From contig JBAXIL010000002.1 of assembly GCA_037138355.1 (NCBI GenBank), positions 3,728-67,727 on the forward strand: a stretch of DNA of 64,000 nt, in the 5' to 3' direction. Of the stretch, positions 2,183 through 12,067 are shown piece after piece. Made by a program: the position numbers and the translations under genes. Within the stretch, counting starts at the first letter, position 1; each line of letters opens with the position of its first letter. The notes under the pieces were generated by a model. The model made no database searches. It was given only the letters and a program-made list of their open reading frames with translations, and was not told the DNA's origin. The DNA is from a bacterium. GTDB lineage: Bacteria > Oederibacteriota > PGYV01 > Palsa-1178.

Positions 2183-3448
2183 CTATTTTTTAAGATCGTC
2201 AGGCGTTCCTATGCGACCTAAAATCGCACTTGCTGCAGCTACTGCTGGACTTGACAAATATACTGACGATTCCGTATGTCCCATTCTGCCTACAAAATTT
2301 CTGTTTGTCGTGGATATTGCTACTTCACCTTTGGCAAGTATTCCCATATGCCCGCCCAAACAAGGTCCACATGTAGGCATAGAAAATACTGCTCCTGATT
2401 TCATAAATATCTCAACTAACCCTTCTTTAATGGCCTGTGTGTAAATATCTCTTGTTCCAGGAAAAATCAAACAACGAACTCTGGAATTCACTTTTTTTCC
2501 TTTTAATATTTTTGCAGTAATTCTTAAATCTTCCATTCTTCCATTTGTACATGAACCTATTACTGACTGATCGATTGACACTTTACCAAGCTTAGATACT
2601 GCCTTCGTATTTTCTGGTAAGCTCGGACATGAAACAATTGGTTCTATTTTCGAACAATCATATTCAATTACTTTTTCATACTTTGCATCCTTATCGCTGG
2701 TATAAACTTTCCATTTATGTTCAGCGCGTGACTTTACATAGTCCATAGTTGTTTTGTCAGGATTCATAAGCCCAACTTTTCCACCAGCTTCTATTGCCAT
2801 GTTTGACATAGTGAGTCTGGCATCCATAGACATCTTATCTATTACTGGTCCTGTAAACTCCATTGCTTTGTATAAAGCACCATCTACTCCAATATCTCCT
2901 ATAGTATAAAGAATAAGATCTTTTGAACTTACCCACTTATTCAGTTTTCCTTTATATACAAACTTAATTGAAGTTGGAACTTTGAACCATGCCTTGCCTG
3001 TCATCATAGCAAAAGCTGCATCAGTAGAACCTACTCCTGTAGCAAATGCACCCAATGCACCATAAGTACAAGTATGTGAATCGGCTCCAATTACTAAATC
3101 TCCTGGGACTACAACTCCTTTTTCAGGAAGTAATGCATGCTCTATACCAACTTCACCTTGATCATAATAGTGTGTTAATTTTTGTTCGTGTGCAAAATCA
3201 CGGAGTATCTTTGCCTGCTCTGCTGATTTAATATCTTTATTTGGTGTAAAATGATCTGGCACAAGAGCCACTTTGGTTTTATCCCAAACTTTTGTCGCTC
3301 CTGATGATTTAAACTCTCTAATAGCAATTGGTGCAGTTATATCATTCGCCAAAACCATATCTACATTGGCTATAATAAGTTCACCAGGTTCAACCTGTTT
3401 TCTTCCACTTTTAGCTGCCAAAATCTTTTCGGCTATATTCATACCCAA
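2183..3448 (-). CDS. leuC: 3-isopropylmalate dehydratase large subunit
   Basis: 421 aa in the aconitase family. Cys-containing cluster-ligand motifs (SCTNGR, MPTCGPC) are present. Operon context. Confidence 0.93.
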
Positions 3449-3472
3449 GATAAAACCTCCATAAAATTAAAG

Positions 3473-4993
3473 TTATTTCTTTTCCATTGCCTCAAACTTT
3501 CCAATTGCATTTAAGTAAGCCTTCGCACTTGCTTCAATAATGTCTGTCGAAACTCCGCGTGCAGTTATTTCTTTATTTCCTTTTTTAACTCTTATGGTCA
3601 CTTCCCCCTGCGCTTCTTCACCTTTGGTAATCGACTTTATCTGATAATCTACAAGCTTAAGGTCGGCTTTTACAATAGCATTAATTGCTTTGTATGTTGC
3701 ATCCACTGGACCATCACCAGTAGAGGCCTGAGTATATGTCTTTTCTGCTTTGATTATCTCTACAGTTGCAGTTGGTATTATTTTATTTCCAGTAGCTGAA
3801 TAAATTGATTTGAGCTGATAAGTATCCTTACCTTTTCTGCCCTCGCCTTCCATCATAGCTATTAAATCTTCATCAAATACTTCTTTCTTTTTATCAGCAA
3901 TCTGAAGGAATTTCGGATAAATAACGCCCGTCATTTCAGCATCTGTTACTTTAAATCCAAGATCCGCTAATCTATGTGTTATCGCATGTCTTCCAGAACG
4001 ACTGGTTAATATCAACTCATGACCTGGTATGCCTATTGACTTCGGCGTCATAATTCCAAAAGTCGATTCGTCTTTTAATATAGCATCCTGATGTATTCCT
4101 GAAGCATGAGCAAAAGCATTTGCGCCCACGACAGATTTATTTGCCTGCACTGACATACCCGTCAAGCGCGAAACCATTTTTGAAGTTTTATAAATTTCTT
4201 CTGTTTTTATATTTGTATCAAATCCATAAACATCTATTCTGGTTTTCAAGGACATAACTATTTCTTCCAAAGCCGCATTTCCTGCTCTCTCTCCCAAACC
4301 ATTTATAGTACATTCTATCTGCCTCGCCCCATTTTTAACAGCGGCAAGAGAATTAGCTGTTGCCATACCCAAATCATTATGACAATGAACCGCTATCACT
4401 GCTTTGTTTATATTTGGAACAGTATTCTTAAGTCTTTTTATTAAATCCCCAAACTCTTCTGGAGTTGTATAACCAACAGAATCAGGTATATCTACAGTTG
4501 TTGCTCCAGCCTTTATGGTTTCTTCAATAACTCTGCAAAGATAATCGAAACCAGTACGCGTAGCATCCATAGCAGAAAACTCTACATCATCACAAAAAGT
4601 TCTTGCATATTTGACGGCTTCAACTGCACGCCTTAATACTTCTTCGTTTGTAGTTCTTGTAATAAACTTTACATGTTGTGGAGAAGTTCCAATAAAAGTA
4701 TGAATTCTTGGTCTTTTGGCAGGTTTTAATGCAATAACACAAGCATCTATATCTTTTTTAATGGCTCTACACAAAGCAGCTATAATAGGTTTTTTTACAG
4801 CTCTGGAAATTTCCTGAACTGATTCCAAATCACCTGGCGAAGATGCAGGAAAGCCACCTTCTATCATATCTACATTTAAACATTCCAACTGTTTAGCAAT
4901 TTCAAGCTTCTCAGCTTTAGTAAGTGAAGCGCCAGGAACCTGCTCTCCATCTCTCAAAGTAGTGTCAAAAATAAATATCTTTTCATTTTTCAT
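3473..4993 (-). CDS. leuA: 2-isopropylmalate synthase
   Basis: 506 aa with MKNEKIFIFDTTLRDGEQ, an HMGL-like TIM barrel and a C-terminal LeuA dimerisation/regulatory domain. Confidence 0.93.
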   Translation of the reverse strand: MKNEKIFIFDTTLRDGEQVPGASLTKAEKLEIAKQLECLNVDMIEGGFPASSPGDLESVQEISRAVKKPIIAALCRAIKKDIDACVIALKPAKRPRIHTFIGTSPQHVKFITRTTNEEVLRRAVEAVKYARTFCDDVEFSAMDATRTGFDYLCRVIEETIKAGATTVDIPDSVGYTTPEEFGDLIKRLKNTVPNINKAVIAVHCHNDLGMATANSLAAVKNGARQIECTINGLGERAGNAALEEIVMSLKTRIDVYGFDTNIKTEEIYKTSKMVSRLTGMSVQANKSVVGANAFAHASGIHQDAILKDESTFGIMTPKSIGIPGHELILTSRSGRHAITHRLADLGFKVTDAEMTGVIYPKFLQIADKKKEVFDEDLIAMMEGEGRKGKDTYQLKSIYSATGNKIIPTATVEIIKAEKTYTQASTGDGPVDATYKAINAIVKADLKLVDYQIKSITKGEEAQGEVTIRVKKGNKEITARGVSTDIIEASAKAYLNAIGKFEAMEKK

Positions 4994-8609: not shown

Positions 8610-10286
8610 CTATTTTTTAAAAATTGCTCCCGTAGAAGCGGATGTTACCATTTGTGAATATCTGTAAAGCACGCCGGACTTTACTTTTGGCTCTGGTTGT
8701 TTCCACTCTGACTTTCTTTTTTTCATTTCTTCGGCAGATACCAATAAATTAATCGACCGTGCCTTTATATCTATTGCTATAGTGTCGCCTTCGCGAACCA
8801 ATCCTATAGGACCACCTTCCATGGCTTCAGGTGATATATGTCCAATAGCTGCGCCTCTTGTGCCGCCTGAAAATCTGCCGTCTGTGATTAATGCCACATC
8901 TTTATCCAAGCCCATACCAGCAATTGCTGCAGTTGGAGCAAGCATTTCTCTCATGCCAGGTCCACCTTTTGGGCCTTCATATATAATAACCACGACATCA
9001 CCGGCCTTGATTTTTTTACCAAGAATTGCTTTTTGCGCATCTTCTTCAGATGTAAAAACCCTTGCCCTAACCTCCCTTTTCATCATCTCAGGCGCAACAG
9101 CTGATTGTTTTACAACAGCGCCCTCGGGAGCAATATTACCAAAAAGTATAGCCAGTCCGCCTTGCTGTGAATATGCGGTTTCCGCAGTTCTTATAATATC
9201 AGTATTATCATTTTCTGCATCTTTAATAATTTGCTTAATTGTTCCAGCAACTGTTTTTACATCAGTGTGTAGCAATTTCTTTTTCGAAAGTTCTTTCATT
9301 AATGCTGGTATGCCACCTGCTTCATTTAAATCAGAAATAAAATATTGTCTTCCGTCTGGAAGTTTTGCTGGTGACAACTTACAAAGATTCGGCGTTCTGG
9401 CTGATATCTCATTTATTGTTTTAAGTTCAAACTTTACTCCTGCTTCATCTGCTATTGCAGGTATATGAAGCACAGTATTTGTCGAGCCACCTAAAGCCAC
9501 ATCAACTGTTATGGCATTTTCAAATGCCTTTGCATTCATTATGTCGCGCGGTTTTAAATCATCTTTTACAAGCTGCATTATCTGCATACCAGCATTTTTT
9601 GCCAATCTTAAACGCTCAGAATAAACTGCAGGTATAGTACCATTTCCAGGCAGTGCCATTCCGAGTGCCTCGGTTATACAGTTCATAGTATTAGCAGTGA
9701 ACATGCCTGCACAAGAACCACAGGTAGGACAGCTTGCATTTTCGATTTTCAATAATGTCTTTTGGTCAAGCTTTCCGTTTGTGTATTCTCCCACAGCTTC
9801 AAAGCCGCCTGATATCAAATCATAATTTTTCCCATGATATTTACCCGCGAGCATTGCGCCGCCACTAATAAAAATAGAAGGCACATTTACTCTCGCTGCT
9901 GCCATGAGCATTCCTGGTACAACTTTATCACAATTAGGGATAAATACTAAACCATCAAAAGGATATGCATTCGCCATAATTTCTACGCCGTCTGCTATAA
10001 GTTCGCGCGATACAAGTGAATATTTCATTCCAGCGTGTCCCATAGCAATGCCATCACACACTCCTATAGAAGGAAATTCCATTGGTGTTCCGCCAGCCAT
10101 TCTGATACCGTCTTTTACTGCCTGTGCTATGGTGTTCAAATGTATATGACCAGGAATAACTTCATTAAATGAATTTACAACTCCAATTATAGGTCTTTTC
10201 AACTCTTCATCAGTATATCCAATAGCTTTAAATAATGCCCTATGCGGCGTTCTTTCTATACCTTTTTTCATTGCGTCTGATCTCAT
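8610..10286 (-). CDS. ilvD: dihydroxy-acid dehydratase
   Basis: The ILVD/EDD family signature begins at [24 protein letters not shown]... The track ORF extends 46 codons further upstream into the leader, which is read-through. The start was set at the ATG at 10284-10286, which has a GGTGA RBS. Cys cluster ligands ([10 protein letters not shown]) are present. Confidence 0.92.
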
Positions 10287-10445
10287 GTTTTCACCTATAC
10301 CTTTTAATTTGATATTACATCTATCTTTGTCAAATGTTTCAAGACCAAATAGACAATAAACAGAAAACTCAAATAAACATAAACAAAATGTTTCTATAAA
10401 GATAAAACACAAAGAGTATAACAAAAATAATACTTCGCTTCAATC

Positions 10446-10475
10446 AAAAAAGCCCTAAACTATGGCTGTTTTTTC
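10446..10475 (-). terminator. rho-independent terminator-like hairpin in the ilvD 5' leader (candidate attenuator terminator)
   Basis: In mRNA sense AAAAAACAGCC-AUAGUUUAG-GGCUUUUUU: a 4-5 bp GC core extended by an A6/U6 stem and a U-tract. It lies about 160 nt upstream of the ilvD ATG and about 200 nt downstream of the leader ORF stop. Confidence 0.5.
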
Positions 10476-10683
10476 TGTTGCGCATTATAAAACCCTATAT
10501 TTTTAAGGCATATTTTCGCTTAAATATTAAGTAAAACTATCGGTCATTTTATCACTAATTTTTGCTATTTTATTACCAATATTAACAAAAACAAATAATT
10601 ATTGATATACCTATCACGGCGCTTGAAACCTTGTATTTGGGGTTTATTTCTTGAATTCCCGGGTTTCTGCGCCGTGTCCAGCT

Positions 10684-10800
10684 TTATGCTAGGACAACGA
10701 CAAGAAGCCCAGTAAGTAAAAGGACTACTACTGGAAGTACAAATGCGGATATAATAATGTTTGTGTATGTTTTTGTAAACTTTCTGTAATTGTTTGCCAT
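10684..10800 (-). CDS. 38-aa branched-chain-rich small ORF; candidate ilv-leu leader peptide (alternatively a small membrane peptide)
   Basis: Not in the ORF track because it is under 60 aa. AAGGAGG lies 7 nt before the ATG. Translation is MANNYRKFTKTYTNIIISAFVLPVVVLLLTGLLVVVLA; 17 of 38 residues are I/V/L, in runs III, VVVLLL and LLVVVL. It sits immediately downstream of a near-consensus promoter and upstream of ilvD. Confidence 0.5.
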   Translation of the reverse strand: MANNYRKFTKTYTNIIISAFVLPVVVLLLTGLLVVVLA

Positions 10801-10824
10801 TTTTATATCCTCCTTTGTGTTAAA

Positions 10825-10853
10825 ACTATAACAAATATAATTACTCATGTCAA
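10825..10853 (-). promoter_or_regulatory. sigma70-type promoter TTGACA-N17-TATAGT for the ilv-leu leader transcript
   Basis: On the minus strand the -35 TTGACA is at 10848-10853 and the -10 TATAGT at 10825-10830, with an exact 17-nt spacer. The leader RBS and ATG begin about 25 nt downstream. Confidence 0.55.
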
Positions 10854-10915
10854 ATAAAATCTTAAATTAATATAAAAAATTTTATATTATGAATAATTAA
10901 ATTAAATTGCGTACT

Positions 10916-12067
10916 TTATTTTGGATACTCTTGTCCTTGCCCTAAAACTGCATGTACCTTCGGCATCCATGAACTTATTTCAATCTGCTGAGGACACTTC
11001 ACTTCACACTCTTTACACTGAGTACACACAAAAGCCCTGTTCTCTGGTTTTACCCAAACCTCATACACATAACGAGATGAACCAGCATCATCAAATATTC
11101 TACCATCGTTATACAATTCAAAGTTTCTCGGTATTGCCACTCCCTGTGGACAAGGCATACAATAATCACAAGCCGTACATGGTATAACTGAACGACTTGC
11201 AAATTCTGCTTTAACCTTTTCTAAAAGATTTAAGTCTTCTGTAGTTAAATGGTTTGCTGTTGACTTGTGAGCCGACTGTAAATTTTCTACCACCTGCTCA
11301 TAATTACTCATGCCACTTAGTATGGTTGATACTTCTGGATGGTCCCATATCCATTGCAAAGCATATTCTGCTGGTGTTCTTTGTATTGTTGTTTTAGAAA
11401 GTATTTTTTTAACATTTTCAGGAGGTCTTGCCAACTTTCCTCCCAATAAAGGTTCCATAATAATTATTGGAATTTTTTTTGCAGCGGCATATTTTAATCC
11501 TGCTGTTCCTGCCTGATTATTAATATCCATATAATTATATTGTATTTGGCAAAACTCCCATTTATCATAACTATCAACAACCCTCAAGAAAGCATCCGCT
11601 TTATCATGAAACGAAAAACCTATATGCCCTATCTTTCCTGCTTTTTTTGCTTCTTCCATTTTTTTAAAAAGGTCAAATTTGCGCATATTAGCCAGACCAC
11701 CATCACCTATACCGTGAAATAAATAATAATCTATATGTTCTACATCTAATTTTTCTAACTGCTCATTTAAAAACTTATCAAAATCTCCTTCTTCTTTTAT
11801 AAGACCTACTGGCAACTTAGTTGCGAGTCTAATCTTTTTTCTGTAACCATCTTTGAGTGCTTTCCCTACAACTACTTCGCTTACTCCATTATGATAAAAA
11901 TATGCTGTATCTATGTAATTTATCCCTTCATCCACTCCATAGCGCATAATTCTAATACTTTCTTTTTCATCCACAGTTTTTCCATCTGGTAAATTAGGCA
12001 AACGCATTGCTCCAAATCCAAGAACAGATATTTTCCAGCCATCGCTTCCAAAAGGTCTATATTGCAT
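10916..12067 (-). CDS. aldo/keto reductase family oxidoreductase with C-terminal 4Fe-4S ferredoxin-type domain
   Basis: 383 aa. An AKR TIM-barrel N-terminal part is followed by two Cys clusters (CTACDYCMPCPQG and CTQCKECEVKCPQ). It is 71 bp downstream of dctM on the same strand. Confidence 0.85.
   Translation of the reverse strand: MQYRPFGSDGWKISVLGFGAMRLPNLPDGKTVDEKESIRIMRYGVDEGINYIDTAYFYHNGVSEVVVGKALKDGYRKKIRLATKLPVGLIKEEGDFDKFLNEQLEKLDVEHIDYYLFHGIGDGGLANMRKFDLFKKMEEAKKAGKIGHIGFSFHDKADAFLRVVDSYDKWEFCQIQYNYMDINNQAGTAGLKYAAAKKIPIIIMEPLLGGKLARPPENVKKILSKTTIQRTPAEYALQWIWDHPEVSTILSGMSNYEQVVENLQSAHKSTANHLTTEDLNLLEKVKAEFASRSVIPCTACDYCMPCPQGVAIPRNFELYNDGRIFDDAGSSRYVYEVWVKPENRAFVCTQCKECEVKCPQQIEISSWMPKVHAVLGQGQEYPK

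Follow-up and report, generated by a model that had tools for sequence, protein, structure and literature searches.

A conserved Leu/Val-rich leader switch upstream of an ilvD-led ilv-leu operon in uncultured bacteria

The 64,000-nucleotide stretch of contig JBAXIL010000002.1 analysed here (the window) carries, ahead of the operon ilvD-ilvB-ilvN-ilvC-leuA-leuC-leuD-leuB, a short open reading frame (ORF) whose last codons are mostly Leu and Val and which overlaps two competing RNA structures (A and B). This element is a real, conserved and uncatalogued Leu/Val leader switch. Most likely, the translated leader, transcribed from its own promoter (P1), and a two-state switch operated by the ribosome tune read-through from P1 to charged tRNA-Leu and tRNA-Val, a reading to which a probability of about 0.62 is given. 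The initial annotation of the locus had proposed a leader-peptide transcription attenuator for the whole operon; a conserved ilv-linked leader and a Leu/Val block over alternative structures were indeed found, and the sensor part of that reading is supported, while its terminator and its single promoter did not hold. All window coordinates are on the minus strand unless stated otherwise, L-numbers denote the fetched loci of relatives (L087 being the closest relative, a sister genome), and the comparative set comprises 14 lineages (members) with 13 distinct leader peptides, all from one narrow clade.

The leader begins with promoter P1 (10825..10853), in which TTGACA (10853-10848) and the -10 hexamer TATAGT (10830-10825) are separated by 17 nucleotides (N17), with TG at 10833-10832. 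P1 matches the consensus at 11 of 12 positions plus the TG; the surrounding 20 kb holds two 11/12 sites, of which P1 alone has the TG. Promoter-like hexamers as such are not enriched in the region (4 found against 6.1 expected from shuffles), and P1 is taken as real because of its 11/12+TG quality and its conservation in relatives rather than because of the hexamer scan: the -35 element reads TTGACA in 13 of the 14 members and TTGACT in one, and TGnTATA is kept in the family. The Shine-Dalgarno sequence AAGGAGG (10809..10815) lies 8 nt before the ATG at 10800, and AAAGGAGG is invariant across members. The leader ORF (10684..10800) has 38 codons followed by TAA (10686-10684) and encodes MANNYRKFTKTYTNIIISAFVLPVVVLLLTGLLVVVLA, with 17 of its 38 residues being Ile, Leu or Val. 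Promoter, ribosome-binding site, start codon, ORF length and residue count had all been described in the same terms by the initial annotation, and are confirmed.

A 5-bp helix was also noticed at the start of the leader, pairing 10810-10806 with about 10750-10746 (columns 13-17 with 77-81 of the RNAalifold alignment). One strand, GGACG (GGAUA in the window), lies immediately 3' of the Shine-Dalgarno sequence, the other, CGUCC (UAUCC in the window), in the region of a Ser codon, and the pairs show compensatory changes between lineages. This predicted helix could limit leader translation, and it may be the reason for the invariant Ser codon UCC in the leader ORF.

The leader belongs to a small family tied to the ilv genes. 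Uncultured Spirochaetia genomes encode the nearest IlvD proteins (77-83% identity), and a homologous small ORF was found at all five loci of the closest IlvD relatives. A profile search of the protein database returned 11 clusters of 36-41 residues; the ORFs of L001/L002 and of L005 gave two further distinct sequences (13 in total), and a metagenome pattern scan added six true members in the same context, its remaining matches being mostly chance GC-rich ones. All members with readable context lie upstream of ilvD-ilvB, and the gene on the leader's other side varies (aldo-keto reductase, TPR protein, ThuA, WD40 protein, shikimate kinase and others). A non-ilv context, which the initial annotation had named as evidence against attenuation, was seen for none of the recovered members with readable context, and the attenuator reading is not refuted on this ground. 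According to the covariance model, the window holds one copy. At the ilvD loci of Syntrophales, Omnitrophota, Veillonellaceae and other Spirochaetota the leader was not found, by the covariance model included. The peptide family has zero matches in NCBIfam and only chance-level ones in Pfam (E = 0.013-0.23, under the curated cut-offs), and the 36-41-codon ORFs are annotated as 'hypothetical protein' or are unnamed in public protein sets. At the RNA level, Rfam gave no family, T-box included, at E<=10 over 9800-11400, and zero families at the gathering threshold over the entire 64-kb window (1-64000), which bears out the earlier statement that no T-box is present.

The downstream gene cluster starts with ilvD (8610..10286, ATG at 10286) and runs contiguously through leuB down to position 421; all eight genes, ilvD included, match NCBIfam equivalogs, so that the proposed eight-gene ilv-leu cluster is sound. 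The operon is without ilvA. Separately, at L074:188-289, in a metagenome-assembled genome of Deltaproteobacteria, an unrelated ORF rich in Ile, Leu and Val (MNNNIVIINLISLISLLVVELLICCGVKGLTMT) with a weak Shine-Dalgarno sequence ends 79 nt upstream of ilvD and may be an independent leader; it is the sole further candidate from the other ilvD loci.

The peptide family has a conserved codon block. Leu and Val account for 10-12 of the last 14 codons in every lineage and in all 13 distinct peptides, and the block is retained in the divergent L088 and L003 despite different nucleotide sequences. Outside the structured part, the alignments show synonymous changes at the conserved Leu/Val codons. Ile varies from 0 to 4 residues per peptide and is nearly missing from the last 20 residues; since Ile is not conserved, it is Leu plus Val that carry the conserved signal, in keeping with an operon without ilvA. 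The initial annotation had stressed that all three branched-chain amino acids (BCAAs) occur in one peptide and had proposed conservation of their codons in orthologous leaders as a check: the former is true of the window and fails for the family with regard to Ile, and the latter turned out in favour of the Leu/Val codons, which are kept with synonymous changes, and not of Ile. Phe, Met, Trp and Cys are missing from the tail of the leader, and Ile is nearly so, in a genome of 35% GC that is rich in Ile (Ile/Phe-rich); Leu and Val are enriched in the tail against this genome's genes, in which they make up only 37% of the hydrophobic residues.

The choice among synonymous codons in the leader is itself odd when 11 of the window's genes serve as the codon-usage reference. 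GTC supplies 3 of the 7 leader Val codons, compared with 3% of Val codons in the reference genes; CTT supplies 6 of the 8 leader Leu codons and TTG none, while TTA and TTG together make up 56% of the reference Leu codons. This choice may stem from RNA-structure constraint or from sensing of particular tRNA isoacceptors.

Folding of the leader yields two structures that overlap the codon block or lie just behind it. In structure A (10659..10712, predicted at -29.2 kcal/mol), a '1:2' helix of 23 bp, the last nine codons (from CUGGG in the codons for T-G) pair with the post-stop RNA as far as CCCGG, with the stop codon in the apical loop. Structure B (10615..10676, -23.4 kcal/mol), a '2:3' hairpin formed by CACGGCGC/GCGCCGUG, encloses GAAACC (10667-10662) and GGUUUC (10630-10625) around a loop of about 30 nt that is A/C-rich and G-poor in all lineages. 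This is the GC-rich hairpin with a nested GAAACC/GGUUUC stem of the initial annotation, at a distance of 7 nt from the stop codon rather than the 6 nt given there. Because A and B share the strand 10676-10659, they are mutually exclusive. The folding check suggested earlier has delivered mutually exclusive, covarying structures, with no terminator partner among them.

Both structures are conserved beyond their sequence. A is predicted in all 14 members (-22 to -39 kcal/mol) and is the RNAalifold consensus for the entire leader. Paired cells reach 85.9% for A in the MAFFT alignment and 93.6% in the model-fitted one, against 40-51% in slid controls, and 87.8% and 91.9% for B, against 32-47%; as fitted alignments lean towards the model, these values and the pairs with double changes (7 in A, 5 in B, with the stop-codon hairpin covarying at 5 of its 6 pairs) are to be read as consistency and not as strong statistical proof. 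The helix of A is kept with other sequences in L088 (GUGCUUAG:CUAGGCAC) and L003 (GCCUGCG:CGCAGGC), and even between the two closest genomes, the window and L087, the stop-codon hairpin shows a compensatory change (CUAGC/GCUGG versus CUCGC/GCGAG). Judged against the ilvD third codon positions, whose identity of about 75% serves as the neutral baseline, B with the post-stop bases is 93% identical to L087 and the C-terminal half of the ORF 88%, compared with 77% for the spacer between B and the next hairpin, T1. The last conserved element after B is a single-stranded AGGUAU motif (10607..10612), which reads AGGUCU in most relatives.

Several further pairings were tried around this motif and set aside, and the candidate partners of AGGUCU are weak. 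A 'P0' pairing between RGRC, the 4 nt directly behind the stop codon, and the GUCU of AGGUCU would extend B to a U-rich tail; in total duplex energy it outperforms shuffles (1/500), yet significance is reached in none of the sequences individually, these are related to one another, and neither the window nor L087 keeps the pairing intact. A '3:4' hairpin suggested by RNAalifold (GCC in the 3' arm of B, GGU in AGGUCU) has 3 bp and is too weak as a terminator. GGA motifs of the CsrA type occur in B of L001 and L083 and are not conserved in the window. As a side observation, L088 holds at 2097-2139 a partial second copy of the B 3' half (GGUUUUAGCGCCGUGAAAGGUGU), about 150 nt downstream of the first.

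In folding predictions, the position of a ribosome on the leader decides which structure is available. Each of the 14 leaders was refolded with a mask for the ribosome that reached from -15 to +12 nt relative to the A site. When the A site was placed 8 codons ahead of the stop, 13 of the 14 leaders had the shared strand in B; placing it 4 codons ahead gave this result in all of them, and placing it at the stop codon in 12. If no ribosome is present, or if one stalls 15-24 codons ahead of the stop, about half of the leaders have the shared strand in A at equilibrium, and A is transcribed before B. The Leu/Val block (codons -15 to -2) coincides with the zone in which a stalled ribosome forces B.

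From these elements a mechanism can be proposed. The strong P1 would transcribe a translated, Leu/Val-rich upstream ORF (uORF); a ribosome with its A site in the last 11 or so codons or at the stop codon would mask the ORF strand of A and leave only B possible, and in the absence of a ribosome, or with a stall further upstream, A could form. B would then be the starvation (ON) conformer, comparable to a 2:3 antiterminator, and A the default (OFF) conformer, comparable to the 1:2 hairpin of trpL; B is most likely ON in starvation because the Leu/Val block coincides with the B-forcing zone. The targets would be ilvD to leuB in the window and, in some relatives, a methyltransferase resembling Tam (trans-aconitate methyltransferase) followed by ilvD to leuB. 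The OFF step would most likely consist of Rho loading on the A/C-rich loop and the 3' arm, which would be single-stranded in A, or of RNA processing; a canonical intrinsic terminator is not proposed, because none follows the switch.

The reach of any such switch is bounded by a second promoter, P2 (10415..10443), which the initial annotation had missed. It consists of TTGAAG-N17-TGTTATACT (TG-T-TATACT), matches the consensus at 9 of 12 positions with TG, and lies 129 nt before the ilvD ATG; each of the 14 lineages has an equivalent extended -10 promoter between leader and ilvD. Control of all operon transcripts by one attenuator, as had been supposed, is therefore impossible, and the leader would modulate only the P1-derived share of them.

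The main alternative within the switch reverses its logic: B, together with AGGUCU and a U/A-rich tail, would act as a weak non-canonical terminator, and A would be the antiterminator. The classical assignment (A OFF, B ON) is somewhat favoured over this reversal, since it explains why Leu/Val codons are kept in the B-forcing zone despite nucleotide change and matches the layout of trpL. More tentatively, the leader may be a classical 1:2/2:3 sensor that has been uncoupled from an intrinsic terminator and drives another output, such as conformer-dependent Rho loading on the A/C-rich loop, or cleavage of the 23-bp helix A or at or near AGGUCU by an RNase, with an unregulated P2 working alongside.

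A number of observations weigh against a P1 switch tuned by charged tRNA-Leu and tRNA-Val, or at least against its details. Unlike in trp-type designs, B can form with a ribosome at the stop codon too, so that the ON/OFF assignment hangs on kinetics; in addition, A and B are near-isoenergetic at equilibrium, A being the minimum-energy fold in about half of the members. On the output side, no U-tract hairpin follows A or B in most members, a U-rich tail after AGGUCU occurs in only about 5 of 13, and the RNA that stays unpaired in state A folds into no conserved hairpin with a U-run; this RNA is modestly richer in C than in G (10-16 C versus 9-12 G per 55 nt) and contains no evident Rho utilisation (rut) site, and the window sequence downstream of B is A/U-rich. 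The distance from B to the next start codon is about 30 nt in L001 and that from B to P2 about 50 nt in L090, which confines the output to B and AGGUCU or the bases just behind them. P1 transcripts may add little to ilvD expression, because P2 is conserved and two weak hairpins (T1 and T2) intervene. The covariation counts rest on few independent events, as the members all come from one narrow clade. Finally, the C-terminal peptide is conserved beyond the need of a pure codon-count model, which would fit a functional hydrophobic peptide too.

This last point leads to an explanation in which the ORF encodes a small membrane peptide, with a basic N-terminus and one hydrophobic helix, as an independent unit whose hairpins serve mRNA stability or 3'-end formation and whose link to ilv is inherited synteny. 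The N-terminal halves of the members are variable, polar and basic, the C-terminal halves are close to VLPVVVLLLTGLLVVVLA, the unit's strong promoter and Shine-Dalgarno sequence are its own, ilvD is provided with P2, and in the window the two units are separated by weak U-tract hairpins. Yet the ORF remains with ilvD despite differing upstream neighbours and despite gain or loss of a methyltransferase gene between ORF and ilvD, a near-pure Leu/Val stretch is unexpected for a membrane helix in so Ile/Phe-rich and AT-rich (35% GC) a genome, a covarying A that competes with a covarying B has no role in a plain small-protein gene, and the hairpin B lacks a U-tract for a 3' end and the peptide a Pfam or NCBIfam family. 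A membrane peptide is accordingly judged unlikely, and keeps what weight it has because the C-terminus is so well conserved.

The methyltransferase gene raises a second rival. A protein of 262-264 residues, a methyltransferase of the S-adenosylmethionine (SAM) type, is encoded between leader and ilvD in L083 (3265-4059) as well as in L001, L002, L084-86, L092, L169, L183, L196, L203 and L208; its best match is trans-aconitate 2-methyltransferase, over the full length and at 92 bits against a curated cut-off of 297. The yeast trans-aconitate methyltransferase acts on the leucine intermediate 3-isopropylmalate, and the Tam-like protein may be an accessory enzyme of the leucine pathway. In L081 (about 3375-3570) and L094 the gene is a pseudogene, of which the N-terminal 9 aa and a C-terminal remnant of 59 aa are left (tblastn E about 1e-20); in the window no remnant was found by tblastn, and the only tie to the methyltransferase-containing arrangement is the homology of T1, T2 and P2 with L081 and L094. 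For a translational control of the methyltransferase, the B 3' arm would have to pair with the Shine-Dalgarno region of that gene (GGCGGCG); such a pairing occurs in L083 only and is treated as coincidence.

According to this rival, the leader controls the Tam-like methyltransferase alone and survives in the window as an intact relic without a current target. The gene does stand directly after the switch in L001, L002, L083-86, L092 and more metagenome loci, it is followed by its own terminator and P2 before ilvD, and it is decaying in place in L081 and L094. However, the most divergent lineages (L003, L004/L090 and L088) have the leader without the methyltransferase, B is still constrained in the methyltransferase-less pair of window and L087 (93% against the neutral 75% or so, and the compensatory change in the stop-codon hairpin), and a Leu/Val sensor makes physiological sense for ilv-leu. 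A relic of this kind is therefore less probable still than a membrane peptide.

The attenuator in its original, classical form is very improbable. It holds that ribosome stalling at BCAA codons chooses between an antiterminator and the terminator-like hairpin T2 (10446..10474), so that the whole operon is governed from one promoter. The leader ORF and alternative structures that it calls for exist, and T2 (A6-C-AGCC/GGCU-U6) has a U6 tract and sits between leader and ilvD, its region being 93% identical to L087. Its stem, however, comprises four G-C/C-G pairs plus A:U pairs with a bulged C, is weak (-6.4 kcal/mol), was not called by the terminator scan and is broken in L087 (-3.0 kcal/mol). 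The hairpin starts 140 nt past B and ends 160 nt before the ilvD ATG, and because of this distance and the lack of a strand in common with A or B, nothing couples it to the ribosome; the same absence of a shared strand applies to T1 (10487..10509), a weak hairpin outside the leader switch (GCCUUA/UAGGGU followed by UUUAU, -4.7 kcal/mol), which is homologous to a hairpin overlapping the methyltransferase stop codon in L081 and L094.

The relatives show further that these hairpins belong elsewhere. T1, T2 and TTGAAG-N17-TGTTATACT align as one unit with L081 and L094, where they stand after the methyltransferase pseudogene, about 480 nt past B; in the methyltransferase-containing relatives, the equivalent terminator follows the stop codon of that gene, about 1 kb away; and in L004 and L090 hairpins of the T1/T2 type are absent. 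Placed 0.5-1 kb from the leader in relatives, T2 is not the attenuator terminator for which it had been taken, and by comparison of these sequences the classical terminator model is largely refuted. In the window the conserved P2 follows T2 directly, T2 lying just upstream of the P2 -35 element. The identities to L087 (92% for the T1 region, 93% for T2 and 93% for P2) are far above the neutral level, and T1, T2 and P2 are therefore functional, yet a module separate from the attenuator; judging by their arrangement, they may form an insulator followed by a proximal promoter, with T2 acting as an insulator or as an UP-like element of P2.

A type I toxin-antitoxin-like locus, in which a toxic hydrophobic peptide would be made from a structured mRNA under antisense RNA, hardly deserves credence, for although a short hydrophobic peptide is encoded, the mRNA is strongly folded around the ORF end and the Shine-Dalgarno-proximal helix may limit translation, such loci are usually multi-copy and mobile, while this one is single-copy in the window, strictly linked to ilvD and of Leu/Val-only composition, and an antisense promoter or terminator is not evident in the scans.

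Two observations concern the spacer in front of ilvD. The 5' untranslated region between P2 and ilvD is U-rich and, over its first 85 nt (10330-10414), 91% identical to L087, compared with 69% over the distal 43 nt; no Rfam match covers the conserved stretch 10330-10414. GC-rich palindromes of the form CCCTC(T/C)CCC...GGG(A/G)GAGGG occur in or near the leader-ilvD spacers of L081 (about 3200-3330), L094, L093 (about 1950-2020) and L004 (about 2200-2330), and in these AT-rich genomes they look like repetitive extragenic palindromic (REP) or miniature inverted-repeat transposable element (MITE) types.

Leader-peptide attenuation is textbook knowledge, most of its documented cases coming from Proteobacteria, Actinobacteria and a few Firmicutes. 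The present family shares with the classical attenuator a uORF with a ribosome-binding site, a cluster of cognate codons and competing helices over those codons, and co-transcription with the operon is probable. The fourth feature, an adjacent intrinsic terminator, is missing, and the family is therefore not filed as a classical attenuator; the caution voiced in the initial annotation, that the mechanism may differ from the classical one, was justified. Among the closest known systems are the ivbL (ilvBN) and trpL types of Escherichia coli and Salmonella. ivbL, too, is a short Shine-Dalgarno ORF before a Val/Leu operon with Val/Leu codons near its end, and in both types a 1:2-type helix with the stop codon in or near its loop (in trpL the stop codon lies in the 1:2 loop) competes with a 2:3-type helix for the middle strand. 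The leader described here differs in having no 3:4 U-tract hairpin, in the stop-codon ribosome leaving the shared strand unmasked, in the second promoter before the operon, in the larger size of the leader (36-41 codons) and of helix A (23 bp), and in the phylum, Spirochaetota.

An output without an intrinsic terminator has precedents in tnaC and in Salmonella mgtL/mgtA, where translation of the leader ORF selects among alternative RNA conformations or ribosome positions and thereby exposes or hides a Rho entry site. tnaC senses free Trp via the nascent peptide and not tRNA charging, and the candidate rut region of the present leader (A/C-rich loop and 3' arm) is, compared with these systems, short and only modestly richer in C than in G.

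Outside Proteobacteria, a close counterpart is found in Staphylococcus aureus, whose ilv-leu operon, likewise headed by ilvD, is under the control of a leader peptide (Kaiser et al., 2018, PMC5794164), and the earlier generalisation that Firmicutes use T-boxes is thereby incomplete. The two systems are alike in their nearly identical gene order, in a BCAA-rich leader upstream of ilvD and in the lack of a T-box (PMC5794164). The S. aureus leader has 26 aa, is Ile/Leu-rich and is followed 52 nt after its stop codon by a poly-U terminator, mutations of which derepress the operon (PMC5794164), whereas the present leader is Leu/Val-rich and has no such terminator after the switch. Conserved amino-acid-rich uORFs before biosynthetic operons are likewise present in Actinobacteria: those of ilvB overlap terminators with poly-U (Seliverstov et al., 2005, PMC1262725; for the Corynebacterium ilvBNC uORF, PMC10272879), and for cys leaders without obvious terminators a Rho-dependent termination as in tnaC has been proposed (PMC1262725). 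The present family differs from the ilvB leaders in lacking such a terminator, and from the cys leaders, which have no conserved alternative hairpins, in its two covarying structures. The Leptospira 'ilvB motif' and the Veillonella 'ilvD motif', weak riboswitch candidates (PMC8632094), are also conserved uncharacterised RNAs upstream of ilv genes, and Leptospira is a spirochaete genus; not being in Rfam, they are set apart by their description only, as non-coding motifs of other genera for which a uORF was not reported. Within the searchable literature, leader-peptide transcription attenuation in spirochaetes (Treponema) was looked for and no report was found.

The regulation of this operon in these uncultured genomes has been missed by annotation because the ORFs are unnamed or 'hypothetical' and the family lies outside Rfam and Pfam. 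If the reading of the leader as a P1 switch is confirmed, it would widen the phylogenetic range of ribosome-mediated amino-acid sensing and provide a compact natural case of a sensor that is read out without an intrinsic terminator. Should the more tentative proposal of an uncoupled sensor prove true, this would be the first amino-acid-sensing leader-peptide system to be described in Spirochaetota, with a mechanistically distinct expression platform.

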